From Bacteroidales bacterium UBA6267 (lineage in GTDB: Bacteria > Bacteroidota > Bacteroidia > Bacteroidales > UBA1556), in contig DJVB01000008.1 in the NCBI GenBank assembly GCA_002440745.1, positions 17,070-81,069 on the forward strand: a stretch of DNA of 64,000 bases. Reading direction: 5' to 3'. Below the pieces are notes generated by a model. That model searched no databases, was not told the origin of the DNA, and was given only the letters and a program-made list of their open reading frames with translations. The stretch's first letter is position 1; every line of letters starts with the position of its first letter. The position numbers and the translations under genes were made by a program. Positions 23 to 64,000 of this stretch are shown here, in pieces.

Positions 23-745
23 CTATTCAACTATCAGTTTCCGGACAAATTGGCCATTAATGCGAAGAATATAAATGCCGTTTTTCAATTCGGAAATGCT
101 AATTTCATCTGATATTTCAGCGGTTTTAATTTGTCTGCCACTCAAGTCAAATATCTCAATATCAACTTTTTGACTAAAATATACCTTGTCACTGCTATTT
201 GGGTTTGGAAAGATATGGATGCCGGATATTGCAGTGTTATCCTTAATCGAAACGGATTGGTTAGATGTGTTTGGAGTTGGAGAAGAGAAACTTGTCCATG
301 TTGCGCCGCCATCGGTTAATCGCCCCATGGAAATGTCAGTTGTTTGGGCGCCAAAGCTTATGGAGTCAACCAAAATGCTATCTCTATCGGTAAGCCTAAT
401 TTTCTCTCCATCTTTACTGAGCTTAATTCCAATATGTAATGCACCATCATTAATATCATCATCAGCCCAGAGCACTAAGAATCCCCCCGGTTGGATTTTA
501 GTGGTAGAATCTCCCGTTGGAATCTGAAATTTGAAAACATCAGAATAATCATCTGTAATGAAAAAACCACCAATGTCAACAACGCTACTTCCTGCATTAT
601 ACAACTCAATCCAGTCCTCAAACTCACCTGATTCATCGGTAGTTATAGCATCATTGTCGGCCATAAACTCATTGATGTAGATTTGGCCGGTAAGACTGTT
701 TAATAGGAATAAAGAAAGCAAAAGTGTGATAAAGTTTTTAATCAT
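23..745 (-). CDS. Secreted lamin-tail-domain (LTD) protein with T9SS C-terminal sorting domain
   Basis: Signal peptide MIKNFITLLLSLFLLNSLTGQ. LTD-like core INEFMADN..FEDWIELYN..GGFFITDD..LVLWADDD. The last ~75 aa (IFPNPNSS..GIYILRINGQFVRKLIVE) fit the Por/T9SS CTD pattern. Confidence 0.7.
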   Translation of the reverse strand: MIKNFITLLLSLFLLNSLTGQIYINEFMADNDAITTDESGEFEDWIELYNAGSSVVDIGGFFITDDYSDVFKFQIPTGDSTTKIQPGGFLVLWADDDINDGALHIGIKLSKDGEKIRLTDRDSILVDSISFGAQTTDISMGRLTDGGATWTSFSSPTPNTSNQSVSIKDNTAISGIHIFPNPNSSDKVYFSQKVDIEIFDLSGRQIKTAEISDEISISELKNGIYILRINGQFVRKLIVE

Positions 746-1905: not shown

Positions 1906-2627
1906 AAATTTAAAGGATTTGAATATACAAACAACTTAGCCATACCATCACTAATAACGTACATGTTTCCTTTTGTGTCGAAACAAAGACCTTCAGGATT
2001 GATGATTTTTAGCGAAAACTTGTTTTTGATTTGTAAAGTTTGGGAATTCAACTGAAGCACTACATTATCTTCATCGCTTAAAACAAACAAATCGTTTTTG
2101 AAGAAGGTCAAAGCTGAAATATCCGATACTTCATCAAATTTTCGTTTATTGATTTGGTTGATTTTTTCATCGAATTCATAAATCATTACCGGATCTTTTT
2201 CCGTAGCTAAGATGAAGTTTCCGTTCGCCGGATTGCGAGTTATAGACTCAAAACCTTTATTTCTTCCACCTTGATAGTTTAGGGTGTAAGTTGCAATTTC
2301 ATTGAGACTAAGATCAAATTTTCTGACATTTCTATTGGCCTCTTCAACTACGTAAATTACGCTGTCGTGATAAAAAACTCCTTCGAAATCCATTCCCTGA
2401 ACGGCTGATTTTTTTAGAATTTTTCCGGTATTATCAGTTTGAAAAAGAGTTCCATTGTCGCCAACCATATAGAACACGTTTGCATCAGAATTATAAGTTA
2501 TTCCGCTTGGCTCCGGCACCTTTAACTGGTATTTTTGTGTTGGAACTAAATATTTTTCTTGTGGAGATTTCTCCTTTGGAGAGAAAATAGTCCAAAGCAT
2601 TAGAGCAAGGATAAAAAAGATTTTCAT
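1902..2627 (-). CDS. SdiA-regulated / YjiK-like beta-propeller protein (secreted)
   Basis: Signal-like N-terminus. PEPSGITYNSDANVFYMVGDNG, GFESITRNP and NPEGLCFDTKGNMYVISDG repeats are typical of the SdiA-regulated (YjiK) propeller family. Confidence 0.65.
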   Translation of the reverse strand: MKIFFILALMLWTIFSPKEKSPQEKYLVPTQKYQLKVPEPSGITYNSDANVFYMVGDNGTLFQTDNTGKILKKSAVQGMDFEGVFYHDSVIYVVEEANRNVRKFDLSLNEIATYTLNYQGGRNKGFESITRNPANGNFILATEKDPVMIYEFDEKINQINKRKFDEVSDISALTFFKNDLFVLSDEDNVVLQLNSQTLQIKNKFSLKIINPEGLCFDTKGNMYVISDGMAKLFVYSNPLNL

Positions 2628-2632
2628 AAGGA

Positions 2633-3181
2633 TTAATTATTTGATTTTCCGGGCGTTGGTATATTGAAATATTGCCAAGTATTGCTTCCATCCGGAAAGC
2701 GACCTTTGCTTACACCATCATTCTGAGCGCCAAAATTTAAACTATCGACTGTTACAAATTGGTTGGTTGAATCTTTGTAAAAAATACCAATGGATTCACC
2801 GCCACTACTCAGTTTAAAATCTGCATGAATATCATTTCCGGTTTGGCCGTCGCACCAAATAAGTAAAAAACCATGCGAAGCTAAGGTTAGAGGTGGAAGT
2901 TCAAATTTGCCGGGGTCAGATAAGTCATCTGTCACAAACCAGTGCCCGGCTGCCATGTTCAGATTATAACTATTTGGATTATATATCTCTATCCAATCTT
3001 CATAAGTGCCATTTTCGTTGACATTGGTGCTGCCTTTGGCAACGAACTCATTTATGAATAAACTTCCCGCCTTGATTTCCGTGGGATTATTGTTAGGAAT
3101 GTCCTGATTATCAACTATTTCTCTGTCCTTAGTGCAGGAAATTAATGTGATAAATGCTAAAAAAAATGCTATTCGTCTCAT
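2633..3181 (-). CDS. LTD-domain lipoprotein
   Basis: The track ORF runs to 3244, but the lipoprotein signal MRRIAFFLAFITLISC starts at the internal ATG at 3181. LTD core INEFVAKG..YEDWIEIYNPN..HWFVTDD..LLIWCDG. Confidence 0.65.
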   Translation of the reverse strand: MRRIAFFLAFITLISCTKDREIVDNQDIPNNNPTEIKAGSLFINEFVAKGSTNVNENGTYEDWIEIYNPNSYNLNMAAGHWFVTDDLSDPGKFELPPLTLASHGFLLIWCDGQTGNDIHADFKLSSGGESIGIFYKDSTNQFVTVDSLNFGAQNDGVSKGRFPDGSNTWQYFNIPTPGKSNN

Positions 3182-3297
3182 AAACACAAAAGTAGCAAGG
3201 AGATTTTTTGTGAATGATAACTTAATGTTAATTCTAAATGGCAAAATTGTTACCGAACAGCTTGCTTAATTAGATGATATTGACCAAGTTTTCGGAG

Positions 3298-3879
3298 CTA
3301 CTCCACATCTTCCATAGCAATGAGCCCATTGAAAATGGCGTAAACAGTTAAACCACTAATGGATTTTATGCCCAATTTCGCAGTTATATTTTTTCTATGG
3401 GTAATCACTGTATGAATGCTAATATTTTCAAAATCAGCAATTTCTTTATTGGTTTTTCCGGTTGCAACATGAGCCAAAATCACTTTTTCCCGTTCACTCA
3501 GTTCACTATTAATCATCGACTCTAATTCAGAAACTCTATGTTGCAGATTTGTGAAAAAGTGCATAATTTCTTTCCGACTCCAATGGATCGAAATGGTTGG
3601 GTAGTTTGGAACAGATTCGTGATTATGGCTTATTTGAATGATTTCCGTAGTTGGACTTATTTTGTATAAGTTATTGAATTGTAATGGATTAATGTCTTTA
3701 AGGATTTCGGTTGAAATGAGTAAAAAATTGGGTTGGTGAGTTCTTAACGATTCTTCTAAGGCTTCTGAACTCTCTAAAATCTCACAAATACAATGATTAC
3801 GAAACTCTCGAATAAGGCTGCTTAATCCTTTATTGATAAGAAATGAATGTGAAGCAATTACAAAATTTCTTTGTGACAT
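3298..3879 (-). CDS. LuxR-family transcriptional regulator with atypical (pseudo-)receiver N-terminus
   Basis: C-terminal LuxR HTH LSEREKVILAHVATGKTNKEIADFENISIHTVITHRKNITAKLGI. The receiver-like N-terminus has LLIST where the phospho-acceptor Asp is expected. Confidence 0.7.
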   Translation of the reverse strand: MSQRNFVIASHSFLINKGLSSLIREFRNHCICEILESSEALEESLRTHQPNFLLISTEILKDINPLQFNNLYKISPTTEIIQISHNHESVPNYPTISIHWSRKEIMHFFTNLQHRVSELESMINSELSEREKVILAHVATGKTNKEIADFENISIHTVITHRKNITAKLGIKSISGLTVYAIFNGLIAMEDVE

Positions 3880-3883
3880 AATC

Positions 3884-4609
3884 TTAATTCAATTTGGTTT
3901 CCATAAATTGTACTCTCGGAATCAAAATTCTGTTTTCCAAATTGGAATGATCGTTTATGTCTTTTTCGAGATGGCCAACTTGACCAAGAATTTTATAACA
4001 AAGAATATTGTTTTTTAAGGGAGGTAAATATTTAATCATTAAGGTTTTTAAATCTAACAGACTTTCCTCAATATCATCATGCTCTTCCACGTAACGTCCT
4101 ATGGCATAAGTTCTTAATTCTTCAATTTCGCCATCAGCTAACGATTGAGGATTGTTGAAATACTGCTCAAGTTTGAGAATATACGGATAAACTATTTTTT
4201 CTTCTCTCTCGATATGCGTTTTCAAATGTTGCTGATACTCCCCGAAAAAATTATTTATTAAGGTTAATTCTTTGATTCGTAAGTCTTTATTTTCTTCTAA
4301 TAAGGTCGTAATTAGACTTTGGATTTCAGGGATTTTACGATTTAAGTAATAGCTGTGGGTGTTTTTTAAGTAAGTGATTATCAGACTCAAAGGAAACATT
4401 TGAAGATGATTCTCTGGATGATATTCGGGCTCATTAAATGCATTAACTATTTCCAAAAAGAAATCAGCATTTACGTTGTTCTCCATGCAAACTTCTTCGA
4501 TAGTCTTGTCGCCGAATCCTAAATTAATTCCAAATCTTGTAAAAACGGAAAGCAAATGGTGATTACTCAAAATCACATCCGCCATTTTTATATCTTTATT
4601 AAAAATCAT
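3884..4609 (-). CDS. Hemerythrin-like metal-binding protein (RIC/ScdA/YtfE-like architecture)
   Basis: N-terminal ScdA_N-like segment (ADVILSNHHLLSVFTRFGINLGFGDKTIEEVC), then His/Glu-rich helical repeats (HSYYL.., HLKTHIEREEKIVYP, EEHDDIEE, DINDHSNLENRILIP). Lies 4 nt upstream of the LuxR gene. Confidence 0.5.
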   Translation of the reverse strand: MIFNKDIKMADVILSNHHLLSVFTRFGINLGFGDKTIEEVCMENNVNADFFLEIVNAFNEPEYHPENHLQMFPLSLIITYLKNTHSYYLNRKIPEIQSLITTLLEENKDLRIKELTLINNFFGEYQQHLKTHIEREEKIVYPYILKLEQYFNNPQSLADGEIEELRTYAIGRYVEEHDDIEESLLDLKTLMIKYLPPLKNNILCYKILGQVGHLEKDINDHSNLENRILIPRVQFMETKLN

Positions 4610-34190: not shown

Positions 34191-34193
34191 TTG

Positions 34194-34266
34194 TTGCCCG
34201 ATCAGGGGTCGAACCTGAACTCTTCTGATCCAGAATCAGACGTGTTGCCAGTTACACCATCAGGCA
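34194..34266 (-). tRNA. tRNA-Gln (anticodon CUG)
   Basis: Hand-folded 73-nt cloverleaf. Acceptor TGCCTGA/TCGGGCA (U1-A72). D arm GTGT/ACAC with a GG loop. Anticodon arm TCTGA-TTCTGGA-TCAGA. T arm TCAGG-TTCGACC-CCTGA. No encoded CCA. Confidence 0.9.
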
Positions 34267-49744: not shown

Positions 49745-51430
49745 ATGGCTGAAATTGACGATAAAAAGATTATTTTTTCGATGGTGAAGGTAAGCAAGAC
49801 CTTCGAAAACAATAAACAGGTTTTAAAAGATATTTATCTTAGCTTTTTTTACGGAGCAAAGATTGGCGTTATAGGTCTAAATGGCTCCGGAAAATCAACT
49901 CTTTTGAAGATTATTGCCGGACTAGAGGAAAAATATCAGGGCGATGTTGTTTTTTCTCCTGGTTATTCCGTAGGATATCTGGCTCAGGAGCCCCATCTTG
50001 ATGATACGAAAACTGTTAGGCAGATTGTTGAAGAGGGGGTTGGAGAAACAATGGCTTTGCTTAAAGAATATGAAGAAATCAATCTCAAATTTGCTGAGCC
50101 AATGACTGACGACGAGATGAATACTTTGATTGATCGTCAGGGAATTTTAACAGAACTCATCGACCAACGAAATGCGTGGGAGATTGATAGTCAGTTGGAA
50201 AGGGCAATGGATGCATTGCGCTGTCCCGAACCGGAAGCTTCGGTCTCGGTGCTCAGTGGAGGTGAAAGACGCCGTGTGGCGCTGACCCGTTTATTGCTTT
50301 CCGAACCGGATATTTTACTCTTAGATGAGCCTACCAACCATCTTGACGCAGAGTCGATTCTTTGGCTCGAACAGCATCTGAAGCAATACAAAGGAACTGT
50401 GATTGCGGTGACTCACGACCGGTATTTCTTAGATAATATTGCCGGTTGGATTCTTGAACTCGACCGTGGTGAAGGTATTCCTTGGAAGGGTAATTATTCC
50501 TCATGGCTCGACCAGAAAACCAAACGTATGGCGTTGGAAGAAAAAACAGAGAGCAACCGAAGGAAAACTCTCGAGCGCGAATTGGAATGGGTTCGGATGG
50601 CTCCAAAAGCTCGTCATGCAAAAGGAAAAGCGCGTTTGAATGCCTATGAACAGCTTTTGAATAGTGATTCGAAAGAAAAAATTGAAAGATTAGAAATATT
50701 CATTCCCAATGGTCCTCGTTTGGGAAATAAAGTTGTTGAAGCAGTAAAAGTTTCAAAGGCTTATGGTGATAAACTACTTTTCGAGAATCTTGAATTTCAC
50801 CTGCCACCAAACGGAATAGTTGGTGTGATTGGACCAAACGGCGCCGGAAAAACTACGCTTTTCAGAATGATAATGGGTTTAGAATCAGCAGATAGTGGCT
50901 CTTTTGAGGTGGGCGAAACTGTCAAAATTGGTTATGTGGATCAGCAGCATGCAGATATTGACCCCGAGAAAAACATCTTTGAAATAGTCTCTCAAGGCAA
51001 TGATTTGATAAAATTGGGCAGTCGCACCATGAACTCTCGTGCATATTTGTCACGTTTCAATTTTAGCGGCAGCGATCAAAATAAAAAAGCCAATACCTTG
51101 TCGGGCGGGGAACGTAATCGCTTGCATTTGGCATTGACTCTTAAGCAAGAAGCCAATGTATTGCTACTTGATGAGCCGACCAATGATATAGACGTCAATA
51201 CGTTAAGAGCATTGGAAGAAGGTTTGGAAAGCTTTGCCGGTTGCGCTGTGGTGATTTCTCACGATCGTTGGTTTCTCGACCGTATTGCAACTCATATCCT
51301 CGCTTTTGAAGGCAACTCTCAGGTTTATTGGTTTGAAGGTTCGTATAGCGAATATGAGGAGAATAGAAGAAAACGTTTGGGCGATGAAGGCCCAAAACGG
51401 ATACGGTATAAGAAATTAAAAGTTGATTAA
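49745..51430 (+). CDS. ettA: Energy-dependent translational throttle protein EttA (ABC-F)
   Basis: Two ABC cassettes (GLNGSGKST, LSGGERRRV, LLLDEPTNHLD / GPNGAGKTT, LSGGERNRL, LLLDEPTNDID). EttA-type length and arm/linker. Confidence 0.9.
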   Translation: MAEIDDKKIIFSMVKVSKTFENNKQVLKDIYLSFFYGAKIGVIGLNGSGKSTLLKIIAGLEEKYQGDVVFSPGYSVGYLAQEPHLDDTKTVRQIVEEGVGETMALLKEYEEINLKFAEPMTDDEMNTLIDRQGILTELIDQRNAWEIDSQLERAMDALRCPEPEASVSVLSGGERRRVALTRLLLSEPDILLLDEPTNHLDAESILWLEQHLKQYKGTVIAVTHDRYFLDNIAGWILELDRGEGIPWKGNYSSWLDQKTKRMALEEKTESNRRKTLERELEWVRMAPKARHAKGKARLNAYEQLLNSDSKEKIERLEIFIPNGPRLGNKVVEAVKVSKAYGDKLLFENLEFHLPPNGIVGVIGPNGAGKTTLFRMIMGLESADSGSFEVGETVKIGYVDQQHADIDPEKNIFEIVSQGNDLIKLGSRTMNSRAYLSRFNFSGSDQNKKANTLSGGERNRLHLALTLKQEANVLLLDEPTNDIDVNTLRALEEGLESFAGCAVVISHDRWFLDRIATHILAFEGNSQVYWFEGSYSEYEENRRKRLGDEGPKRIRYKKLKVD

Positions 51431-52672
51431 ATGAGGTATTGGGTTTTATTTTTTATTCTTATCGGCTTACTTTTTTCAGTGAGAAGTCAGGGGCAAGATG
51501 AGGCTAAAAATCTCTTCAAGTTTCAAATTCATGGTTTTGTGAAGTCGGATTATTGGTACGATACGCGGCAGGTTGTCCAGTCAAGAGAAGGTTTGTTTTC
51601 CCTATTTCCAATGCCGGTTGCTCTTGATTCCAAAGGCGAGGACTTAAATGCGCATCCTTCCTTCAATTATTCGGCTATTTCGACTCGAATTAGCACTACG
51701 ATTGATGGTCCAAATGCCTTTGGTGCAAAAACTCAAGCATTTATTGAAGGAGATTTTACCGGAATTTCCAACGCCACCATCAATACGTTACGTCTTCGTC
51801 ATGCGTGGATAAAATTGGATTGGGAAAAAACTCGGTTGATTTTTGGACAAGATTGGCATCCAATGTTCGTAACTGAAGTTTTTCCCGGAGTTTTAGCGTT
51901 AAATACCGGTGCTCCATTTCAACCATTTATCCGAAATCCACAGGTTCGTTTGGAGTATCGTTTTAAAAAAACCACCCTCATGTTAGCCGCTCTTTCTCAA
52001 AGGGATAACTCATGCAATGGTCCTGTTGGTCGCGATTTCAGCTACTTATCCAATAGTTTGTTGCCAAATTTTCATGGTCAAATGAAAACTAAAATTGGTA
52101 AGTCGCTTTACGGAGCAGCCTTCGACTGGAAATCTATAATGCCTCGAATGGCAACCGACAGCGGGTTTTATACTTCAGCTCGATTGAATTCTACGTCTGC
52201 GATGGTTTTTTATAAATATTCTGACGAACATTTTACGTTTAAAACCAAATTTATTTATGGTCAAAATCTTACAGAGCACCTTATGTTGGGCGGTTATGCC
52301 ATCGCCGACATCGATACCTTGACGGATTCCCATGAATATACTGCCACAGAACATCTATTTGCCTGGGGCCAGATTTTATATACAAAAAAGCTTAAACGTG
52401 TTGATATTCAGCCTGGTTTGTTTTTTGGCTACGCAAAAAATCTTGGCACTACAACTGAGAATCTCGGAATATATTACGCAACCGGTGCTGACTTGGACGT
52501 TTTGTTGAGGGTGAGTCCTTCAATAAATATCTATTCGGGGCCAATGATGGTGAGCTTGGAATGGGAATGGACAGAAGCTTTTTATGGGGTTCCTGACAAA
52601 AATGGCTTGGTGCAAAACTCAAAACCTGTGGATAATCATCGTTTTATGATTGGGGTTTTCTATCTATTTTAG
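51431..52672 (+). CDS. Outer-membrane beta-barrel porin-like protein
   Basis: Signal peptide. LRLRHAWIKLDW..IFGQDWHPMF porin-like motif. Terminal aromatic residue (..GVFYLF). The ATG abuts the ettA TAA. Confidence 0.5.
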   Translation: MRYWVLFFILIGLLFSVRSQGQDEAKNLFKFQIHGFVKSDYWYDTRQVVQSREGLFSLFPMPVALDSKGEDLNAHPSFNYSAISTRISTTIDGPNAFGAKTQAFIEGDFTGISNATINTLRLRHAWIKLDWEKTRLIFGQDWHPMFVTEVFPGVLALNTGAPFQPFIRNPQVRLEYRFKKTTLMLAALSQRDNSCNGPVGRDFSYLSNSLLPNFHGQMKTKIGKSLYGAAFDWKSIMPRMATDSGFYTSARLNSTSAMVFYKYSDEHFTFKTKFIYGQNLTEHLMLGGYAIADIDTLTDSHEYTATEHLFAWGQILYTKKLKRVDIQPGLFFGYAKNLGTTTENLGIYYATGADLDVLLRVSPSINIYSGPMMVSLEWEWTEAFYGVPDKNGLVQNSKPVDNHRFMIGVFYLF

Positions 52673-53254
52673 AGGAGTTAGATTTTTGTATTTAAAGGTG
52701 TTAACTAATTGAATTACATCTTTTTCGATGGCTTTAATTACTGGTTGTAGTGAATCGTTTCGTGGTTCGGTATTAAAATACAAAGCCCCACGAAGAAAAT
52801 AATTGACACTGTCAGTCAGATAGAAATTTAAAGGCGAAGCGGCTTCATTCCCTTCAATAAAATACATCAATCCATAAACTTTATTCTCGCTTCTGACAAT
52901 TGGTTCAGGGATGATATTTGTGGCTTTGGGAGTGTGTTTATAAGCCAAATCGTGGCAATCTTCAATATAGCTTGCCAATGTGGTATCCATATCATGATAG
53001 GTGATAAAGAGGGTTGCTTTGTAAGGACTGTACTCAATATTTACCCAATTTGAATCTTTATGCATTTGTCTTTTAACTATCACATAATCAGCCACATCAA
53101 ATGAGTAGGGGATATTAGGATGATGGAAAGGAACATAACTGTATTCCGGAATATCGATTCTAAAATTACCAATGGGTTTTGGTATATATTCGTCTTGACA
53201 ACTCATGAAAGTCAGCATAAAGACTGAAAAAACAAGCAGTTTAATATTATTCAT
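52664..53254 (-). CDS. gldD: Gliding-motility lipoprotein GldD-like
   Basis: Lipobox FMSC, about 190 aa, immediately downstream of and 8 nt overlapping a GldE-type gene. This is the arrangement known from Flavobacterium johnsoniae. Confidence 0.55.
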   Translation of the reverse strand: MNNIKLLVFSVFMLTFMSCQDEYIPKPIGNFRIDIPEYSYVPFHHPNIPYSFDVADYVIVKRQMHKDSNWVNIEYSPYKATLFITYHDMDTTLASYIEDCHDLAYKHTPKATNIIPEPIVRSENKVYGLMYFIEGNEAASPLNFYLTDSVNYFLRGALYFNTEPRNDSLQPVIKAIEKDVIQLVNTFKYKNLTPLK

Positions 53255-54578
53255 TGATTTGTATCTTTACTTTTTTAATTCTTTTGTTGTCAGATAATAC
53301 CACCTCAAAATCAACGTTTTTGAAGCTAAGTCGATCTCCAATTGCCGGAAAATCGCCATTAATCTCCAAAACTAATCCGGCCAAGGAATCGGATTCGCCT
53401 TTTACGTCATCGAAAAAATCCAAGTCGAAGTCGAAATATTTGCAAAAATCATTAATGGAGGTTTTTGCATCAACAACCCACTGTTGTTCTGCGATTTTAA
53501 CAAATTGATTATCAGATTCTTTGATGTCGAATTCATCAGAAATTTCACCCATAATTTCTTCTAATACATCTTCAAGAGTAACGATGCCCGATGTGCCGCC
53601 GTACTCATCTACAACTATGGCTAAATGGTTTTTTCGAGTTTTAAAATCTTGAAGCAAATCGTTGATTTTTTTATTTTCCGGTATGAAAAAGGGCTCTCTG
53701 ATAAGGAATTTCCACTGAAATTCACTTTTGTGAAGATGAGGCAGTAGGTCTTTGATATGCAAGATGCCTTTGATATTGTCGAATGTTTCTTCAAAAACAG
53801 GAAATCGCGAATAGCCCCATTCTTTGATATAGTCGATTAGCTCCTCAAAGTTCATGTTGGAATTCAACGCAGCAACGTCCACCCTGGCTTTCATAATCTC
53901 GCTGACTTCTGTCTCGCCATAGGTTGTAATTCCTTTCAGAATCTTCACTTCTTCGGTCTTTTGTTCGTTATTTTCAGCCATTTCCACCACATCACTCAAC
54001 TCGCTCATGGTAAGCGGTCCTTTGTGTTTTTGGATTTTCCTCTCTAAAACTATCTGGCTTTTTTCGACAAAAAAAACTAAAGGATAAAACAGCCAAGAAA
54101 AAAGAATTAAAGGTTTTATCATCAGGCTGATAAATATCCTATATTGCTGACGTGCATATATTTTTGGTAAAATTTCGCTAAAAAGCAAAAGGGCTAAACT
54201 GATAAGGAGTGCTTTCAGTAAAAGTTCAACCGATGTTGAGATATAACCCGAAAAAATATCGGGAAAAGTAAAAAAGAACAGCAATATGGCAATCACATTG
54301 AATAGATAGTTGCTGACAATGATCGTGCTTAATAATCGCTGTGGATGTTCTAACTGCCTGATAATTAATTGGTGTTTTGGGTTTTCAGATTGAGAAAGGT
54401 TTTTGATAGAAGCTTCATCCAAGGAGAAAAATGCTGTTTCGGAACCGGAAACTAAACCCGAAATTATAATGGCCAAAGCAACTAATACGAAATTAATAAT
54501 ATCCCCTGAATTGAGTGTCAGCAAAACAAATGAATTGATTTGCAATAATATAGATAAATACTGATCGGATGATTCCAT
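53247..54578 (-). CDS. gldE: GldE-like DUF21-CBS-CorC_HlyC membrane protein
   Basis: N-terminal 4-TM DUF21 region, CBS pair (..[20 protein letters not shown]..), C-terminal CorC/HlyC transporter-associated domain. Confidence 0.65.
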
Positions 54579-54775: not shown

Positions 54776-54783
54776 TACTTTTG
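54776..54783 (+). promoter_or_regulatory. Candidate -7 promoter box TACTTTTG
   Basis: Exact TAnnTTTG match 41 nt upstream of ATG 54824. Confidence 0.4.
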
Positions 54784-54823: not shown

Positions 54824-55621
54824 ATGAAAAATTTTAAATATTTGATATTCATCTTTTTAACTGTGGTTTTAGCAGTGAAGGCCGATTTGTATCTCGAACG
54901 AAATTCTCAAATGGATGAGGTTGTTATTCTTGAAAAAGTATATTCCAAAGGGCCTTTTTACAAAGAAACCAACCCCAATAATTCCTTATCAGTGAACTGG
55001 GAAACTGATCATATTATTTACGAAAATCACCGTCATCGGATTTTTTGGGAGGGTACGGCTGAGGAGTTTCAGACTGCGATGCAGCAAATGATTAAGGAAA
55101 GCGAAGAGCATAGCTTAGTTGGCTATTCCGATGAGGAGCGAGAAGCGGCAGAAGAGCAATTGAAGAAATATAAGGCTAATCCTCAAAAAATGTCTTTCTC
55201 CGTAAAGGCTTCTGGCAAATCTGAAAAATTGTTAGGTTATGATTGTCAAGAATTTATAGTTTTAAATGATACAACTCCAATCGCGGCTTTTTATCACAGT
55301 CCGAAAATTAATTTAATTGAAAAACCCTATTTGGAAAAAGCGAAAGCGCTTTTCAAGAAATTAAACTATAATGACCCTACCGATTTTTTACAGTCTTCTG
55401 CGATGGAATCTTATATGTTTAGTGGCTTGATTATCAAGATGGTGATTTATGGAGATTATACGAGTTCGGAGGAGGTTGAAGAGTATGTAAATGTTCAGCA
55501 AGAAGATATTGACCCAACCATTTTCGGTGTTACCGATGGATATTCTTTAATGCCTTTGATTGAGGTGATGAAGTTGGATTTGTTTGAAGATGAGGTTGAT
55601 ACAGACGAAACTAACGAGTAA
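54824..55621 (+). CDS. Hypothetical secreted protein with acidic C-terminus
   Basis: Signal peptide MKNFKYLIFIFLTVVLAVKA. Acidic tail LFEDEVDTDETNE. No confident family. Confidence 0.4.
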   Translation: MKNFKYLIFIFLTVVLAVKADLYLERNSQMDEVVILEKVYSKGPFYKETNPNNSLSVNWETDHIIYENHRHRIFWEGTAEEFQTAMQQMIKESEEHSLVGYSDEEREAAEEQLKKYKANPQKMSFSVKASGKSEKLLGYDCQEFIVLNDTTPIAAFYHSPKINLIEKPYLEKAKALFKKLNYNDPTDFLQSSAMESYMFSGLIIKMVIYGDYTSSEEVEEYVNVQQEDIDPTIFGVTDGYSLMPLIEVMKLDLFEDEVDTDETNE

Positions 55622-55627
55622 AAGAAC

Positions 55628-57574
55628 ATGTTTAGTATTCAAAATCTTTCGGTAAGTTTTTCTGGAAATGAGCTTTTTAAGAATATCAACTTTCTTATCA
55701 ATGACAAGGATCGCATTGGATTAGTTGGAAAAAACGGAGCCGGAAAATCAACCCTTTTAAAGATTATCATTGGCGCTCAAATCCCTGATTTGGGTGAAGT
55801 GGTGATTCCCGGGTCCAAATCCTTAGGTTATTTGCCTCAGGAAATGCTTTTCACAGATAGTAAGTCCATCATGGCTGAAACTCTTACGGCTTTTGACGAA
55901 GTGCTCGAATTGCAGAAGGAATTGGATGTTCTGAACGATTATTTCACTCATAGTCAGGATTATGAATCTGTGGAGTATTTGAGAAAATTGGAACGTCATC
56001 ATTGGATAAACGACCATTTGAGTTTGCTCAATACCGGCTCGATGGAAGGAGAAGCCGAAAAAACCTTGATGGGATTGGGATTCGACAGAAAGGATTTTGG
56101 AAATCCTACTTCTACACTCAGTGGCGGTTGGCGAATGCGTATTGAATTGGCAAAAATTCTTCTGAAGAAACCCGATCTTTTGCTTTTAGATGAGCCAACG
56201 AATCACCTTGATATTGAGTCGATTCAGTGGCTTGAAACTCTACTTTCAAGTTGGCATGGCGCTATCGTTTTGATTTCTCACGACCGTAATTTTTTAGACC
56301 GCGTTACCACTCGAACCATTGAAATAAGCCTCGGCAGAATCAGGGATTATAAGTTTTCTTATTCTCAATATGTTGAAGTTCGCCAAAACGAGCTCAAACA
56401 AAACGAGTCGGAATATAATAATCAACAGAAGCAAATCAAAGAAATTGAGGACTTTATCGAACGTTTTCGTTATAAAGCCACAAAAGCCAAACAGGTGCAA
56501 TCGCGAGTGAAAATGCTCGATAAAATGGATAAAATTGCGTTGGAAACTGTGGATGCTTCTGCAATGCACTTTCGTTTTCCCCCAGCGCCACCAAGCGGAA
56601 AAGTGGCTCTCGAAATAGAGAATTACGCGAAAAGCTATGGATCTAAAACAATTCTAAAGGATGTTAACCTAATCATCAAGAAGAATGATTTTATCGCCTT
56701 TGTGGGACGAAATGGAGAAGGTAAGTCCACCCTCATTAAATCCATAGTTGGCCTTATTGACTATGAGGGGGAAATTAAGCGAGGTTATAATGTGAGTATT
56801 GGTTATTATGCACAGAATCAGACTGATATGCTCGATTTGGAAAAAACTGTTTTGGAGACCATCGATGATGCAGCAGTGGGCGATATACGCAAAAATATAC
56901 GTGGAATCTTAGGTAGTTTTCTGTTTGGTGAAGACGATATTGACAAAAAGGTGAAAGTATTGAGCGGTGGTGAGAAAGCGCGGTTGAGTTTGGCTAAAAT
57001 GCTTCTAACGCCTGTAAATCTGCTCATACTCGATGAGCCTACTAATCATTTGGACATGATTTCAAAAGATATTCTGAAAAATGCACTGCTTCAGTATAAT
57101 GGAACTTTGATTTTAGTTTCCCACGATCGGGATTTCTTACGTGGTTTGAGCGATATTACGTATGAGTTTAAGAATCAAAAACTTATAGAACATCTTGGCG
57201 GAATCGACTTATTTTTAGAAAAACGCGCTTTAGAGAATTTGCAAGCTTTGGAGGATGTTAAAAAAATCAAAGCGACAGAGTCTAAAAATGTGGAAAATAG
57301 CAATAAAACAGTCTATTTAGAAAAGAAAGAGCGAGATAAATTGGAGCGCAAACTTAAAAAAGAAATTGCCCAAATGGAAGAGCTGATTGCTTCTCTTGAG
57401 TTGAAAATTGCTGATTCTCAGGAGAAATTGGCTAATCCTCAATTGCATGGCATCGATTTATCTAATCCGGTTTTCTTTGAAGAATTCAAAAAACTTGAGA
57501 AAGATTTGGAGAAAGCCCTTGACGATTGGGAACGTGCTCAGATTGCCTACGATGTGGAATTCGGGGAGGTATAG
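55628..57574 (+). CDS. ABC-F family ATPase (YbiT/Uup-like) with C-terminal coiled coil
   Basis: Two cassettes (GKNGAGKST, LSGGWRMRI, LLLDEPTNHLD / GRNGEGKST, LSGGEKARL, LILDEPTNHLD). No TM domain. Lys/Glu-rich C-terminal coiled coil. Confidence 0.85.
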   Translation: MFSIQNLSVSFSGNELFKNINFLINDKDRIGLVGKNGAGKSTLLKIIIGAQIPDLGEVVIPGSKSLGYLPQEMLFTDSKSIMAETLTAFDEVLELQKELDVLNDYFTHSQDYESVEYLRKLERHHWINDHLSLLNTGSMEGEAEKTLMGLGFDRKDFGNPTSTLSGGWRMRIELAKILLKKPDLLLLDEPTNHLDIESIQWLETLLSSWHGAIVLISHDRNFLDRVTTRTIEISLGRIRDYKFSYSQYVEVRQNELKQNESEYNNQQKQIKEIEDFIERFRYKATKAKQVQSRVKMLDKMDKIALETVDASAMHFRFPPAPPSGKVALEIENYAKSYGSKTILKDVNLIIKKNDFIAFVGRNGEGKSTLIKSIVGLIDYEGEIKRGYNVSIGYYAQNQTDMLDLEKTVLETIDDAAVGDIRKNIRGILGSFLFGEDDIDKKVKVLSGGEKARLSLAKMLLTPVNLLILDEPTNHLDMISKDILKNALLQYNGTLILVSHDRDFLRGLSDITYEFKNQKLIEHLGGIDLFLEKRALENLQALEDVKKIKATESKNVENSNKTVYLEKKERDKLERKLKKEIAQMEELIASLELKIADSQEKLANPQLHGIDLSNPVFFEEFKKLEKDLEKALDDWERAQIAYDVEFGEV

Positions 57575-57597
57575 AGAACTACTTTAAAACCACGAAT

Positions 57598-58008
57598 ATG
57601 AAGATTCTAATGCTTTATTGTGATTATTTTGCCTATAAACCTACTACCAAGAATTTGGAATGGGCTAAAGATGAAACAGAAGAGAAAAGTTTTGAAAATG
57701 TGCAAGTTGCATTTGTGCAAATTGAATCTCACGACAGCGAAGATGTGTCCAGTTCGGTAAAAAAGTTGGTAAATTTTATCAAATGGGTTGCACGAAAAAA
57801 CTCCTGCGAAAAAGTAATTCTCCACTCTTTTGCTCATCTTTCAGAAAGCAAGGCTGAGCCTGAAATCACTAAAGATATTTTTGATAAAAGCGAATTGAAA
57901 CTGATAAATGGCGGGTATCAAACCTCCCAAACACCCTTTGGCTACTTTCTCGACTTAGACCTAAAAGCTCCTGGCTTTAGCATGGCAAGGGTTTTCAAGA
58001 GTTTCTAA
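57598..58008 (+). CDS. Stand-alone homolog of the archaeal-type ThrRS N-terminal editing domain (tRNA-Thr_ED / DTD-like fold)
   Basis: From the internal ATG (MKILMLYCDYFAYKP..). The blocks VQVAFVQIESHDS, VILHSFAHLSESKAEP and SQTPFGYFLDLDLKAPGFSMARV line up, from memory, with the Pyrococcus ThrRS editing domain blocks (MR.LLIHSDYIEYE, VLVAF..VEK, V.VYPFAHLSS.LA.P, APFGYYK.F..SCKGHP). The 24 codons before this ATG in the track ORF overlap the ABC-F 3-prime end. Confidence 0.65.
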   Translation: MKILMLYCDYFAYKPTTKNLEWAKDETEEKSFENVQVAFVQIESHDSEDVSSSVKKLVNFIKWVARKNSCEKVILHSFAHLSESKAEPEITKDIFDKSELKLINGGYQTSQTPFGYFLDLDLKAPGFSMARVFKSF

Positions 58009-58057: not shown

Positions 58058-58077
58058 ATTTAGATTTATATCTAAAT
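58058..58077. promoter_or_regulatory. Perfect 8-4-8 inverted repeat ATTTAGAT-TTAT-ATCTAAAT (candidate operator)
   Basis: Read directly. Overlaps the candidate -7 box at 58073-58080, upstream of the giant kinase ORF. Confidence 0.4.
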
Positions 58078-58080
58078 TTG
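58073..58080 (+). promoter_or_regulatory. Candidate -7 promoter box TAAATTTG for the giant sensor kinase gene
   Basis: Exact TAnnTTTG match about 73 nt upstream of ATG 58153. Confidence 0.4.
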
Positions 58081-58152: not shown

Positions 58153-61100
58153 ATGGAGAACAACGACAACTTGCTAGAATCTTATCAAAAACAGCTAAAC
58201 GAACTTAAAGGTGAACTTGATAAAATTCGCCAAAATGCCAATATAGACAGCGAGAATCATTCGGGTTCGTATTACCATACTGTATTGCATTCCATTGGTG
58301 ATGCGGTGATTACAACCAATCATCATGGACAAATTACTCTGATGAATCCCATAGCCGAGCAACTTACCGGCTGGACAATGAACGATGCGATTGGGCGCCC
58401 TTTAGACGAGGTTTTCGATATCATCAATGAGTTCACAGGCAAGAAAGTGGAAAATCCGGTGGCCTTAGTCTTAAAAAAAGGAGCAGTTGTAGGATTAGCC
58501 AATCACACCATTCTTCGAAGCCGATTGGGATTGAAAACTCCAATTGCCGATAGCGGTGCCCCAATCATCGCTCCTGATGGAGAAATTCAAGGGGTGGTTT
58601 TAGTTTTTCGTGATCAGTCAGGCGAACGTTTTAAAAACCTAATTCAGGAAGTGCGTTTATGCTTAATCGACTATGCACGCGCTTATGATTTCGACAAGTT
58701 TGTAAAATTTTCCCTCGAAAAACTGCTTCTAATTTCGGAATGTAAGTTTATCTTTTATAAGGTTTTAACCCCGGAAAGTACAACCACACGAAACACGTTC
58801 ACTGCATTAAAAACGGATTCAAATCCATGGAGTTTGGAAGTCGAAAATATTGATGAACTTGTAAACTCTGACGGTTTGAAAGGTTCTCTTTTGGAGAAAA
58901 TTCCGGTTAAATTGGATAGCATTTCGGATTCTTTTCAAGGGTTCTCAGCCAAAATCCTTACTGAAATTGAACAACTGTCTCTTATTCCGGTTGTAAAAAA
59001 TGATGCGGTTTCTGCTGTGCTCGGACTGATTTCCAATGAGACGAATTCTTGCGAGATTGATTTGGAATTGTTCCATTATTTGGCTGACGTCTTCTATGAA
59101 GTTGCCGATAAAAAGCTTAAAGATGAGTTACTTCTGGTCCAATCGGCTCAACTTGAAGAGCGCATCAAAGAGCTTGAATGTTTGTATCAATTAACTTCAT
59201 TAAACAATGATGCTAATCTTTCAGAGGAAGAGTTTTTCCAAAAAGCGGTTTGTCTGATTCCTCCGGCCTGGCAGTTTTCTTCTCCTTGTTCAGCTATTTT
59301 AACTATTGATAATCAGATTTATACAAGTAAGCCTGAAAAAGATCGAAAGACCTCCATCAAAGAATTTATTCGCTCTTCGGAAAAGGTTTATGGTTCGATT
59401 GAGGTGTTTTATTCTGATGAAAATCTTAGGTTTTTAGAAGAGGAAATTAATCTTCTAAAAACTATTGCTGACATCATCTCGCAATACATAATTTCGCGGG
59501 AAGTAAGCCGAGAGAAAAATCAAATCAAGTCTCTATTTCAGACGCTTTTCAACGAAAGTCCTCTTCCGGTTTCCATTTATCGCACTGATGGCGGAAAGAT
59601 AGATATGGTCAACAAAGCTTGGGAAAAGTTTTACGGATATAAAGCTGAGGATGTAGTTGGAAAAACTGTGGTAGAAGCCGGACTTGTTGATAATCAGGAT
59701 TTTGAAAAATTGTATCAACAGTTTCGGATTAGAGGTGGTTTAGATAGTCGAGAGACAACAACTCGTGTTTCGACCGGTGAGATTAAAGAAGTACTTTCTT
59801 CCGTTAAGGAAATTAGAATCAATGATCAATCCTATATCCTAAATGTTATTGTTGATGTTAGCGAAAAAAAGCAGGACGAACGGCTGATTCGTGAGCAGCA
59901 AGAAAACTTACGAATTACTTTAGAATCCATTGGAGATGGAGTAATAGCAACCGATTTGGAAGGAAGAATTACTCGTTTAAATCCTGTGGCACAGCTTCTT
60001 ACCGGTTATTCGGATGAAGAAGCGATTGGGATGCCTTTGACAGATGTTTTCAAAATTTTTCATGCAATAACCGGTGAAAAGGCTATCAATCCTGTCCTAC
60101 GTGTTTTAAAGGAAGGCATAGTTGTAGGTTTGGCCAACCACACAAAATTGATTTCCAAAACTGGTAAAGAGTACCATATTGCCGACTCTGCCGCTCCCAT
60201 ACGCGATGTTAATGGGCAAATGAAAGGTGTGGTGATGGTTTTCAGAGATGTGACTAAGGAGTATGAAATGCGCGAGAAAATTGAGGCAAGGGAGTCGATG
60301 TATCGAGCTATTTTTGAAAATACCGGAACAGCATCCAGTCTTATTGAAGCGGACGGAACAATTATGGTTGCTAATCACCGGTTTTCGCTACTTGCCCAAC
60401 AGCCATTAAGGGAGATTGAGAAAAAAAGAAAATGGACGGAATTTGTGGTGCAGGAAGATTTGGATAGGATGATGGAGCAGCATAAACTCAGAAGAATTAA
60501 CCGTGAAGTGGCCTTGCGCGAATATCAATTTCGGTTTCTGACTGCAAACAAGGAAATTAGGCATATTTTCCTAACGGTCGATTTGATTCCCGGAACGACC
60601 ATGAGCATTGCTTCTTTACAAGATATTACCGACTTAGTAAATAATGAAGCGGCCCTGAAAGCGAGTGAATTACGTTTTAGGTCCTTTGTTGAAAACGCCA
60701 ATGACATTGTTTATTCTGTTAGTCCTGAAGGAATTTTTACTTATGTTTCTCCTAATTGGGAAGAGCAGCTTGGCGAGCCTGCCGAAAATGCAATTGGAAA
60801 AAACATTTCCGATTATGTTCATCCAGAAGATGTTCATTTATGCTATAACTTTTTATCAAAAGTATTGGAAACCGGTGAGAAGCAATCCGGTGTTGAATAT
60901 CGCGTAAAACATAAAGACGGCTCCTACCGATGGCACTCTTCTAATGGGTCGATATTTAAAGATGACGAGGGAAATCTTTTGTATTATATGGGCATTGCCA
61001 GAGATATAACACAAACGAAAATCGCACAAGAAGCCCTAATATTTAATGAGAACAAGCTTCGTAATATCTTAGATAATTCGGCAGATGCAGTGTTTATTTC

Positions 61101-64000
61101 TAACTCGGAAGGGTTTTTTAATTATGTAAATCAAGAAGCTGTACAATTTTTAGGATGGAGTGAGCACGAGCTTCTTAAAATGCACATTGCTGATATTACT
61201 CCCCCCGATTGGCAACAAAAACGAATGGAGCAATTTCAAGCTTTGTTAAAAAAGGGAATAATGTTGATAGAATTGGATTTGCTTAAAGCCGACGGAAGTA
61301 CTATTGAGGTGGAATTAAATGCAACAGTATTGCCCGATGGAAACGTTTTTGGTAGTTGCCGTGATATTTCAGAACGAAAAAGACAGCAATTACAAATTCA
61401 ATTTAATGAACAGAGATACAGAAACTTAGTTAATGAAATGCAGTTGGGTCTTGCTCTTCATGAGCTCATTTTCGATGATAGCGGAAATCCAATGGATTAT
61501 AGGTTTCTTGAAGTTAACAAAGCGTTTTTACAACTCACAGGTTTATCTTCTGATATCATAGGTAAAACTGTTTTGGAGGCTCTTCCCGGTACAGAGCAAT
61601 TTTGGATTGAACGTTACGGAGAGGTTGTTTTAACCGGAAATCCTATAAGCTTTGAAAACTATGCCTCCGAATTGAATCGTCATTATTCTGTTCGCGCATA
61701 CCGACATTCTGAAAATCAGTTTGCTGTTTTGGTGGAAGATATTACATCACGAAAACAGATTTCTGAAGAAGTTTTTGAACACCGCCGACAGCTTTCCACT
61801 TTATTTAACAATCTTCCCGGCCTTGCTTATCGTTGCAGAAATGATGAGTTCTACACAATGGAATTCCTCTCAAAAGGATGTCACGATTTGACAGGTTATA
61901 AATCAGAAGATTTAATTGAAAATAGAATTAAATCATATTTCAGTATGATTTATCCTGACGATAGAAATTATGTCAAAGCTAAAATTGACGAAAGTTTAGC
62001 AATAAATCGACCTTTTGAGATAGAATACAGAATCGTAAGAAAAAATGGTGAAATTCGTTGGGTTTGGGAAAAAGGGCGTAAAGTTTCAAAGAGTATAGAT
62101 GGTATAGAAGTGCTTGAAGGACTGATTAATGACATAACCGACCGTAAGCAAATGGAGTTAGAGTTGCAGGATGCGTTGGCTCGAAATCAAGCACATAAAG
62201 AGGCAAATCCTGATATGTTGTTTATCTTCAATTCTGAGTGCAAGATTATTGACTTTAGTGCTCCTCAGCCTGTTCAGAAACTATTAGTTATGTTGCCTGA
62301 GCAATTCCTCGATAAGCTAATTGAAGAAGTAATGCCGGGGAAAATTGCAGATATGACCCGTGAAAAGGTGTCTTCTGTTCTAACGACCGGAGAACCTGCA
62401 ATTTCGGAATACAGTCTTGAAATTGGCGGGCAAACTCAATATTTTGAAGCTCGATATGTTAAGGGCAGTCAAAACGAAGTCCTTGCAATCGTTAGAAATG
62501 ATACCGAAAAGGTTTTAACACAAAAAGCACTCGTTGCAAGTGAAGAGAAATTTCGTAATCTCTTTCAAAAACACTCTGCTATTAAATTGATAATCAAGCC
62601 GTCAACGGGTGAGATTGTCGAAGCCAATGATGCTGCAGCTGCCTACTATGGTTGGTCCGTTGATGAACTTTGCCAAATGAAAATAAGCGAAATCAATACT
62701 TTAAACACATGGCAAGTGAAAAAAGAAATGATTCGCGCCAGAGATCAGGATAATGTTCATTTTATCTTTAAACATCGAAAAGCAGATGGCTCTTTTGCTG
62801 ATGTGGAGGTCTTTAGCAGTAGAATTAACATTGACGGTGAAGATTTTTTACACTCAGTAATTCACGATGTTACCGAAAAAATTAAAGCTGAAGAAAGGCT
62901 TAGATTACTTAGTCGGTCGGTTGAACAAAACCCTGTCAGTATTGTTATTACCGATTCCTCTGGAAATATAGAATATGTGAATCCTGCCTTTTCTCGAATT
63001 ACAGGTTATTCCTTGCAAGAAGCTATTGGGCAAAACCCACGAATTCTGAAATCCGGACGACATAGTCAGGAATTTTATAAGAATCTTTGGGGAACCATTC
63101 TTTCAGGAAAAGATTGGCATGGGGAATTGCTCAATGTCAACAAAGCCGGTGGGGAGTATTGGGAAAATGTCGTTATCTCGCCTATTGTTAATGATGCCGG
63201 AAAAATCACTCATTTTGTGGCAGTTAAAGAAGATATCAGCGACAAAAAGAAAATGATTCACGACCTCACTATTGCCAAAGAAAAAGCTGAGGAAAGCGAC
63301 CGGCTGAAGTCGGCATTTTTGGCAAATATGAGTCACGAAATCCGAACTCCCATGAACGGCATCATAGGTTTTACTGGTTTGCTGAAAGATAGTGACCTTA
63401 CCGGAGAAGAGCGCTTGCAGTTTATCGAAATTATTCAACGGAGCGGTCAGCGAATGCTTAATACGGTCAACGATTTAATCGATATTTCTAAGATTGAAAC
63501 TGGTCAAATGCCGGTTATTTTCTCAGAATTCGATATCTTTGAAAAAACCGAGAGCTTATTTCAATTCTTCTTGTTAGAGGCTTCCGACAAAGGAGTCTCT
63601 TTGAGATTTGACTACAACCTAAAACCAAACTGTCGCATTATCCGCTCCGATGAAGTGAAAATAGATTCCATTTTTACAAATCTGATTAAAAATGCCATCA
63701 AATACACCGATGAGGGTTATATAACTATCTCATTGATTTCTAATGGAAAAGGTGTTGAGTTTAGTGTTGCTGATACCGGAATTGGCATTCCACCTGAACG
63801 ACAAGGAGCAGTTTTCAATAGGTTTGAACAAGCTGATGTGGCCGACAAACGAGCGTTTCAAGGCTCAGGTTTAGGATTGACCATCACCAAAGCTTATGTC
63901 GAAATGCTCGGCGGAAACATTACTTTGGAATCAGAATTAGGAAAGGGGAGCAAGTTTACAGTGGTCTTTCCTGAGATCGATTTTTGCGCAAAAGAGGAGG
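58153..64000 (+). CDS. Giant multi-PAS sensor histidine kinase, 3-prime partial (11 PAS-like modules, GAF-like region, unassigned module, HisKA, HATPase_c)
   Basis: Not in the ORF track, because it has no in-window stop. In-frame TAG at 58138-58140, ATG at 58153, then 1,949 codons translated by hand with no stop. There are eleven PAS-terminal D(I/V)(T/S)-type motifs. H-box ANMSHEIRTPMNG (His codon 63334-63336), N-box NLIKNAIKYT, DTGIGIP, GSGLGLT. Confidence 0.9.
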   Translation, partial: MENNDNLLESYQKQLNELKGELDKIRQNANIDSENHSGSYYHTVLHSIGDAVITTNHHGQITLMNPIAEQLTGWTMNDAIGRPLDEVFDIINEFTGKKVENPVALVLKKGAVVGLANHTILRSRLGLKTPIADSGAPIIAPDGEIQGVVLVFRDQSGERFKNLIQEVRLCLIDYARAYDFDKFVKFSLEKLLLISECKFIFYKVLTPESTTTRNTFTALKTDSNPWSLEVENIDELVNSDGLKGSLLEKIPVKLDSISDSFQGFSAKILTEIEQLSLIPVVKNDAVSAVLGLISNETNSCEIDLELFHYLADVFYEVADKKLKDELLLVQSAQLEERIKELECLYQLTSLNNDANLSEEEFFQKAVCLIPPAWQFSSPCSAILTIDNQIYTSKPEKDRKTSIKEFIRSSEKVYGSIEVFYSDENLRFLEEEINLLKTIADIISQYIISREVSREKNQIKSLFQTLFNESPLPVSIYRTDGGKIDMVNKAWEKFYGYKAEDVVGKTVVEAGLVDNQDFEKLYQQFRIRGGLDSRETTTRVSTGEIKEVLSSVKEIRINDQSYILNVIVDVSEKKQDERLIREQQENLRITLESIGDGVIATDLEGRITRLNPVAQLLTGYSDEEAIGMPLTDVFKIFHAITGEKAINPVLRVLKEGIVVGLANHTKLISKTGKEYHIADSAAPIRDVNGQMKGVVMVFRDVTKEYEMREKIEARESMYRAIFENTGTASSLIEADGTIMVANHRFSLLAQQPLREIEKKRKWTEFVVQEDLDRMMEQHKLRRINREVALREYQFRFLTANKEIRHIFLTVDLIPGTTMSIASLQDITDLVNNEAALKASELRFRSFVENANDIVYSVSPEGIFTYVSPNWEEQLGEPAENAIGKNISDYVHPEDVHLCYNFLSKVLETGEKQSGVEYRVKHKDGSYRWHSSNGSIFKDDEGNLLYYMGIARDITQTKIAQEALIFNENKLRNILDNSADAVFISNSEGFFNYVNQEAVQFLGWSEHELLKMHIADITPPDWQQKRMEQFQALLKKGIMLIELDLLKADGSTIEVELNATVLPDGNVFGSCRDISERKRQQLQIQFNEQRYRNLVNEMQLGLALHELIFDDSGNPMDYRFLEVNKAFLQLTGLSSDIIGKTVLEALPGTEQFWIERYGEVVLTGNPISFENYASELNRHYSVRAYRHSENQFAVLVEDITSRKQISEEVFEHRRQLSTLFNNLPGLAYRCRNDEFYTMEFLSKGCHDLTGYKSEDLIENRIKSYFSMIYPDDRNYVKAKIDESLAINRPFEIEYRIVRKNGEIRWVWEKGRKVSKSIDGIEVLEGLINDITDRKQMELELQDALARNQAHKEANPDMLFIFNSECKIIDFSAPQPVQKLLVMLPEQFLDKLIEEVMPGKIADMTREKVSSVLTTGEPAISEYSLEIGGQTQYFEARYVKGSQNEVLAIVRNDTEKVLTQKALVASEEKFRNLFQKHSAIKLIIKPSTGEIVEANDAAAAYYGWSVDELCQMKISEINTLNTWQVKKEMIRARDQDNVHFIFKHRKADGSFADVEVFSSRINIDGEDFLHSVIHDVTEKIKAEERLRLLSRSVEQNPVSIVITDSSGNIEYVNPAFSRITGYSLQEAIGQNPRILKSGRHSQEFYKNLWGTILSGKDWHGELLNVNKAGGEYWENVVISPIVNDAGKITHFVAVKEDISDKKKMIHDLTIAKEKAEESDRLKSAFLANMSHEIRTPMNGIIGFTGLLKDSDLTGEERLQFIEIIQRSGQRMLNTVNDLIDISKIETGQMPVIFSEFDIFEKTESLFQFFLLEASDKGVSLRFDYNLKPNCRIIRSDEVKIDSIFTNLIKNAIKYTDEGYITISLISNGKGVEFSVADTGIGIPPERQGAVFNRFEQADVADKRAFQGSGLGLTITKAYVEMLGGNITLESELGKGSKFTVVFPEIDFCAKEE

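Follow-up and report, generated by a model that had tools for sequence, protein, structure and literature searches.

What does a bacterium do with a free-standing protein that resembles the editing domain of archaeal threonyl-tRNA synthetase (ThrRS)? The question is raised by a 136-amino-acid protein encoded in a 64,000-nucleotide stretch of DNA from Bacteroidales bacterium UBA6267 (contig DJVB01000008.1), referred to here in its entirety as the window. Textbooks and the Pfam name 'Archaea-specific editing domain' treat the module in question, PF08915, as archaeal, and the D-aminoacyl-tRNA deacylase (DTD)-like fold to which it belongs is described in the literature searched as DTD, the N-terminal domain (NTD) of archaeal ThrRS and ATD only (PMC5802732). 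An earlier note on this DNA had read the gene as an archaeal-type ThrRS editing domain, unexpected in a Bacteroidota genome, and had paired it with the ABC-F ATPase gene just upstream. The best explanation of our data, which we hold with moderate confidence, is that the protein is a member of a stand-alone bacterial clade and acts in trans as a dimeric aminoacyl-tRNA deacylase, with substrate handling probably unlike Ser-tRNA(Thr) editing. The gene is delimited as follows.

57598 to 58008, plus strand: gene for the 136-amino-acid stand-alone DTD-fold protein (PF08915, stand-alone bacterial clade), identified by its open reading frame (ORF), profile match, structure match, ratio of nonsynonymous to synonymous substitution rates (dN/dS) and homologues.

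The frame ends with TAA at 58006-58008, and a program-made list of ORFs opens it early, at TTG 57526. All homologues begin M-K-[ILV]-L in alignment with ATG 57598, and we therefore take this codon rather than TTG 57526 as the start. The four blocks that the earlier note had matched to the archaeal domain, MKILMLYCDYFAYKP, VQVAFVQIESHDS, VILHSFAHLSESKAEP and TPFGYFLDLDLKAPGF, are all present in the translation from ATG 57598, and its identification of a free-standing archaeal-type ThrRS editing domain with a DTD-like fold is borne out by the Pfam profile, by sequence matches in the Protein Data Bank (PDB) and by superposition. PF08915 (tRNA-Thr_ED) is the sole domain of the protein and matches over its full length (E 1.9e-37, 128.8 bits against a cut-off of 30.2; residues 1-135 on profile positions 1-136 of 137). 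PDB sequence matches were to archaeal ThrRS editing domains only (E-values of ~3e-15 for Pyrococcus abyssi, 6e-9 for M. jannaschii and 1e-6 for A. pernix ThrRS-2), and no structure of a stand-alone bacterial PF08915 protein was among them. An AlphaFold2 monomer model built with 64 homologues as input (pLDDT 93.3, pTM 0.88) superposes on the P. abyssi NTD (PabNTD) with a template modelling (TM) score of 0.92-0.93 and a root mean square deviation of 1.8 Å, on the M. jannaschii NTD with a TM score of 0.90 and on the A. pernix NTD with 0.82-0.87, whereas scores for DTD and ATD structures are 0.57-0.71. Comparison with an 87%-identical homologue gave a dN/dS of ~0.11 and thus strong purifying selection; the gene is genuine and looks like one for an expressed protein, with selection acting to keep its product.

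The protein is far from alone. The earlier note was right to place the genome in the Bacteroidota, as indicated by a neighbouring GldD lipoprotein gene and by closest relatives that are metagenome-assembled genomes (MAGs) of Bacteroidales/Prolixibacteraceae; the free-standing bacterial copy that it called unexpected there is genuine, but rare it is not, since at least 564 species genomes carry a close homologue (one genome per GTDB species scanned) and NCBI already has a name for such proteins, 'threonyl-tRNA synthetase editing domain-containing protein'. Conservation in relatives, on which the same reading depended, extends to thousands of stand-alone homologues. A search of 5.8 billion proteins yielded 3,628 homologue clusters, and the best 120 of the 3,628 are nearly all 132-139 amino acids long (one has 161) and contain PF08915 only; the named members among these 120 are Bacteroidales, Mariniphaga and Tangfeifania. 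Among the matches listed, genomes with a homologue are mostly Prolixibacteraceae/Marinilabiliales, with further carriers in Ignavibacteria/Melioribacteraceae, Saprospiraceae, Flavobacteriaceae and 'Chlorobiota' MAGs. One divergent cluster derives from candidate division KSB1, and no homologues (phage copies) were found in viral contigs. The existence of the family is not new, databases having annotated it already. We found no relevant or experimental paper on bacterial stand-alone PF08915 proteins in the literature searched, and the status of these proteins as a distinct clade and the re-wiring of their pocket appear to be undescribed.

Both of these features emerge from the 816 matches at E<=1e-3, archaeal synthetases included, that a profile found among 1.84 billion 50%-identity representatives. 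The aligned full-length representatives fall into two signature classes, 25 of ThrRS type and 54 stand-alone, that compare as follows.

Length: ThrRS-type up to 723 amino acids; stand-alone 130-169 amino acids.
Motif before the oxyanion-hole segment: ThrRS-type Tyr-Pro-[Tyr/Phe]-Ala-His-Leu; stand-alone His-Ser-Phe-x-His-Leu.
PabNTD positions 120/121: ThrRS-type Tyr-Lys (Lys 100%); stand-alone variable, F/S/T then L/N/C.
PabNTD positions 130/131: ThrRS-type His-Pro; stand-alone variable.
PabNTD position 134: ThrRS-type Glu (100%); stand-alone Lys or Arg (100%).
Trp63: characteristic of the stand-alone class.

Lys121 and Glu134 are thus found in 25 of 25 ThrRS-type and 0 of 54 stand-alone sequences, and Tyr120 in 24 of the 25 ThrRS-type sequences. 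Common to both classes are E43, D46, the F/Y-A-H-L segment, P-F-G and G126. Sequences share on average 35% identity inside the stand-alone class, 46% inside the ThrRS class and 26% across the two. A neighbour-joining tree separated the classes in 187 of 200 bootstrap replicates once 10 truncated or frameshifted representatives had been removed, with which there is no clean split, and the class definitions draw on 4 of the 136 columns from which the tree was built. Alignment and tree together place the 136-amino-acid protein within a separate stand-alone bacterial clade, sister to the archaeal ThrRS N-terminal editing domains.

The residues that distinguish the classes lie in the active site as it is known from PabNTD (PDB 1Y2Q, 2HL1, 3PD2-5, 4RRQ), which has the same PF08915 domain, a TM score of 0.93 and 28% identity to our protein, but is archaeal, fused to a synthetase and outside the clade. 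The corresponding codons are these.

57823 to 57840, plus strand: H76-S77-F78-A79-H80-L81, where F78/A79 correspond to Phe81/Ala82 of PabNTD and H80 to His83.
57934 to 57954, plus strand: P113-F114-G115-Y116-F117-L118-D119, with the P-F-G loop common to archaeal NTDs.
57988 to 57990, plus strand: R131, which aligns with the cross-subunit Glu134 of PabNTD.

In PabNTD the oxyanion hole is built from the main-chain NH groups of Phe81 and Ala82, A76 meets the protein at an RNA-protein interface made by residues 117-120, and its 2'-OH activates the catalytic water (Ahmad et al. 2015, PMC4491819). The oxyanion-hole segment F78-A79 and the loop P113-F114-G115-Y116 are conserved in the 136-amino-acid protein. 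Across the clade, this segment, the His and the P-F-G loop that touches A76 count among the best-conserved positions. Of the invariant archaeal pocket set His83/Tyr120/Lys121/Glu134, H80 is kept and the other positions are occupied by Phe117, Leu118 and Arg131, with F117-L118 aligning to the invariant Tyr120-Lys121. Ahead of the segment, His-Ser (H76-S77) replaces the archaeal Tyr79-Pro80 as the signature of the stand-alone clade, Pro80 becoming S77, and His130-Pro131 of PabNTD gives way to residues that vary in the clade. Published work indicates what these positions do: His83Ala inactivates PabNTD, all three archaeal NTDs are severely impaired by Lys121Met because the Lys positions the water, and the cross-subunit Glu134 of PabNTD binds the alpha-amino group of the substrate (PMC4491819). 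By the alignment, the backbone- and RNA-based machinery is kept, every invariant archaeal side chain of the amino-acid pocket is replaced, and the alpha-amino site is reversed in charge.

On this basis we propose that the protein would form a homodimer, as do all known members of the fold, with a predicted cross-subunit active site, and that the 136-amino-acid dimer would bind the CCA-3' end of aminoacyl-tRNA in trans. The choice of tRNA would be made from the acceptor end only, because the protein has no anticodon-binding domain, and hydrolysis of the aminoacyl ester would be assisted by the A76 2'-OH together with a bound water. The substrate, or how it is held, probably differs from that in Ser-tRNA(Thr) editing, because the water-positioning Lys121 is lost and the alpha-amino-binding Glu134 has become Arg/Lys. 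Several observations weigh against this proposal. Gene neighbourhoods in the family are heterogeneous, without a consistent translation-related partner, and loss of the water-positioning Lys could equally fit weak or no hydrolytic activity. Tyr120 and Glu134 are, moreover, dispensable in the archaeal NTDs, where Ala mutants keep specificity (PMC4491819), and replacement of side chains alone is therefore no proof of a new substrate.

The last point also speaks for the main competitor, namely that the protein is a trans-acting Ser-tRNA(Thr) editing factor and backs up the cis N2 site of bacterial ThrRS, just as AlaX does for AlaRS. Its nearest homologues and its structural matches are without exception Ser-tRNA(Thr)-editing domains, the P-F-G-Y loop and F-A-H motif are kept, main-chain and RNA contacts mostly set the specificity of the fold, and Y120A and E134A mutants work (PMC4491819). 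Nevertheless, we consider this explanation unlikely. Lys121 is Leu here and L/N/C across the clade, and K121M severely compromises editing (PMC4491819); the charge at Glu134 is reversed, the tree sets the clade apart, and there is no anticodon-binding domain to provide selectivity for tRNA(Thr). The pocket and the lack of this domain also distinguish the protein from the crenarchaeal trans-editing factors ThrRS-ed/ThrRS-2 (NF011500; A. pernix PDB 4RR6), with which the earlier note had compared it. Their editing domain is homologous (TM 0.82-0.87) and acts in trans, as we predict here, but they are ~390-400 amino acids long and have an anticodon-binding domain and a Tyr-Lys...Glu pocket, which our protein lacks. 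They are not its equivalents: against the NCBIfam model for these enzymes, NF011500 'Ser-tRNA(Thr) hydrolase', it scores 41 bits with a cut-off of 362 and covers model positions 1-124 of 387. Nor is it linked to a ThrRS; with NF003068 it scores 84 bits against a cut-off of 484. A metagenome locus of a distant subfamily (L165) bears on the need for such a back-up, as it carries thrS at 2256-4235 (minus strand), 1.7 kb from the family member at 166-570 (plus strand). This bacterial thrS lacks its N1/TGS part and keeps an apparently intact N2 editing site (motifs RHSTAH and DLCRGPH), so that in this one genome the family member need not compensate for a defective ThrRS. Redundant trans-editing, as by AlaX for AlaRS, is possible by analogy.

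A second alternative is a DTD-like chiral or achiral proofreader that removes D-aminoacyl or glycyl moieties from tRNAs. DTD (PF02580) is likewise bacterial, stand-alone and ~145 amino acids long, shares the fold at TM scores of 0.57-0.71, and has a hydrophobic residue where the archaeal NTDs have Lys121, Met occurring there naturally (PMC4491819). It differs in its SQFTL and NxGPVT (Gly-cisPro) motifs. We found no Pfam match of the 136-amino-acid protein to PF02580 (Tyr_Deacylase) even at E<=1 and no match at the sequence level, and SQFTL, NxGPVT and any Gly-Pro dipeptide are absent from its sequence, which has HSFAHL and APGFS instead. The gene lies directly beside dtd in one relative (L007) and near it in another (L003): a canonical dtd (PF02580, E 1.7e-53) begins 3 nucleotides downstream of the gene in the former and lies two genes away in the latter, co-directional in both (2 of the 80 genome loci described below). 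Because canonical dtd co-occurs beside the gene in these genomes, the protein is not simply the DTD of the cell, as judged from gene content, and the function is already covered there. A DTD-like role therefore strikes us as improbable. A precedent for what we propose is ATD, a stand-alone paralogue within the fold that acquired a new substrate, L-Ala-tRNA(Thr), through changes in its pocket (PMC5802732). ATD itself arose from DTD (Gly-transPro) and not from the NTD branch, and its TM score with our model is ~0.60.

There is also a stronger version of our proposal, which we offer tentatively and think somewhat doubtful: next to DTD, archaeal NTD and ATD, the stand-alone 'His-Ser ... Lys/Arg' clade may constitute a fourth branch of the DTD-like fold in functional terms, with an aminoacyl-tRNA substrate of its own. 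Ser77 and the cross-subunit Arg/Lys131 would then take over water positioning and substrate anchoring from Lys121 and Glu134, and an aminoacyl moiety that is acidic or N-blocked, and not Ser, would fit the charge-reversed alpha-amino site. Ser77 is missing in a few stand-alone-like representatives (HA, HF, YT or VS variants), which argues against its being an obligatory nucleophile. If true, the fourth branch would represent a proofreading activity, so far undescribed, that anaerobic Bacteroidota, Ignavibacteria, KSB1 and soil lineages commonly possess.

At the opposite extreme, the protein might not be a tRNA deacylase at all, the fold having been re-used for another adenosine-ester or small molecule or for non-catalytic binding. 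Such re-use would agree with the loss of the archaeal water-positioning Lys and amino-binding Glu and with gene neighbourhoods that have nothing to do with translation, where Bacteroidota have Sir2, PEMT-like and haem-binding genes and a second subfamily has trpE-trpG. Against it, DTD, NTD and ATD, all the members of the fold that have been characterised, act on aminoacyl-tRNA, and the clade counts the oxyanion-hole segment, the His and the loop at A76 among its best-conserved parts. For these reasons we give this explanation little credence.

The favoured reading, a trans-acting deacylase, leaves the question of the ABC-F neighbour. The earlier note had suggested that the two genes encode a translation quality-control pair, and its description of the locus was accurate in each respect. 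The features concerned are listed here.

54824 to 55621, plus strand: ORF of 265 amino acids without a significant family match, 6 nucleotides before the ABC-F gene.
55628 to 57574, plus strand: ABC-F ATPase gene of 648 amino acids, with two ABC_tran domains and ABC_tran_Xtn; a neighbour in this species only.
57575 to 57597, plus strand: gap of 23 nucleotides between the ABC-F stop codon and ATG 57598, in which neither a terminator-like site nor a promoter-like motif occurs.
58153 to 64000, running past the window, plus strand: start of a giant multi-PAS sensor histidine-kinase gene (1981 amino acids in contig L081).

The upstream gene is indeed a bona fide ABC-F, akin to the EttA/Uup/ribosomal-protection-like factors: its product has two ABC_tran domains, the ABC_tran_Xtn linker (E 1.5e-25) and no transmembrane domain, and it scores 417 bits with NCBIfam NF000355 against a cut-off of 380. 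Its TAG stop codon at 57572-57574 is followed on the same strand, after exactly 23 nucleotides, by ATG 57598, and no terminator-like site or hairpin was found on the plus strand between the two genes. A scan of the window for the Bacteroidetes -7 motif TAnnTTTG found none in the 400 nucleotides before the 136-amino-acid gene, nor before the ABC-F gene; matches to the motif alone stand before the 265-amino-acid ORF (TACTTTTG at 54776-54783) and before the PAS/histidine-kinase gene (TAAATTTG at 58073-58080). The short gap suggests co-transcription with the ABC-F gene in this species, and from the placement of the two motif matches we infer that the gene is probably the third cistron of a transcript in which the 265-amino-acid ORF is the probable first gene, followed by ABC-F and the editing-domain gene.

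A functional, ribosome-associated pair would explain this arrangement, which is identical in 12 of 12 contigs of this species, yet it dissolves as soon as other species are considered. Using tblastn with the window ABC-F, we compared the best 80 relatives, in 72 of which the sequence upstream extends for at least 2 kb, and found an ABC-F adjoining the editing-domain gene in 0 of the 80 genome loci, the only matches being distant generic ABC ATPases of 22-31% identity. The same was true of 0 of 80 metagenome loci of the second subfamily, where a single weak 28% generic ABC match lies on the opposite strand. In the nearest relatives (L001, 87% identity; P0002, 86%; P0003, 71%; L003, 65%) the gene is instead preceded by queA, by a MauG-like peroxidase and MbnP that are transcribed divergently, and by a spacer of ~370 nucleotides, and divergent family members have yet other contexts without ABC-F. 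No DNA similarity between the window and the 87% relative was found upstream of the ATG, and the PAS/histidine-kinase gene downstream is common to the window and the closest relatives L001 and L087. The shared 3' side and unlike 5' side therefore place a rearrangement breakpoint exactly at the start codon. Judged from these comparisons the juxtaposition is recent, lineage-specific and without functional meaning, there being no conserved genomic link between ABC-F and the editing-domain gene. The pair is highly improbable, and a tempting but false lead is now removed.

Other neighbours recur in the 80 genome loci. A Sir2-family deacylase gene lies co-directionally downstream in 6 (L004, L005, L025, L027, L035 and L061), a PEMT/ICMT-like membrane methyltransferase gene in 3 (L002, L003 and L027), and a DEAD-box helicase gene in 13 Prolixibacteraceae loci; Sir2 and dtd adjacency is commoner than chance for single-copy genes. 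No thrS, dtd, Sir2, PEMT or DEAD homologues were found in the 64-kb window. The distant stand-alone subfamily, of the Lys131 type, comes from ~56% GC soil/sediment contigs (metagenome loci L109-L169), scanned with a profile from a 10-sequence subset, a 25-sequence alignment being too diverse. There, trpE-like genes (Anth_synt_I_N and Chorismate_bind domains) and trpG/pabA-like GATase genes lie upstream on the same strand in 26 of 59 evaluable loci (e.g. L111:2223-4696, L152, L163), with gaps to the editing-domain gene of mostly 6-14 nucleotides and of 97-136 nucleotides in three loci, and an SH3_3 lipoprotein gene then follows. Editing-domain identity among these trpEG-linked loci is 63-100%, and they may be one lineage; the Sir2, dtd and trpEG enrichments may likewise reflect shared ancestry.

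The remaining features near the gene are given for completeness. A second ABC-F paralogue of 561 amino acids (49745-51430, plus strand; two ABC_tran and ABC_tran_Xtn) lies 4 kb before the 648-amino-acid ABC-F and is followed by a 413-amino-acid ORF without a Pfam match (51431-52672). The product of the 265-amino-acid ORF has an N-terminal hydrophobic segment and a sub-threshold DUF4412 match (E 0.01). Divergent from this ORF are genes for a GldD-like gliding-motility lipoprotein and a CNNM/CBS/CorC protein (52664-54578, minus strand), which is consistent with a Bacteroidota origin, and the only Rfam or ARAGORN match in the window is a tRNA-Gln (CTG) at 34193-34266 (minus strand).

Taken together, these data reveal a large, conserved bacterial clade in which the RNA-assisted catalytic scaffold is kept and every invariant side chain of the pocket is swapped. 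Because scaffold and pocket have been separated in this way, the clade offers a natural experiment on how a primordial fold sets its specificity, and its stand-alone members are candidates for a new aminoacyl-tRNA quality-control activity.

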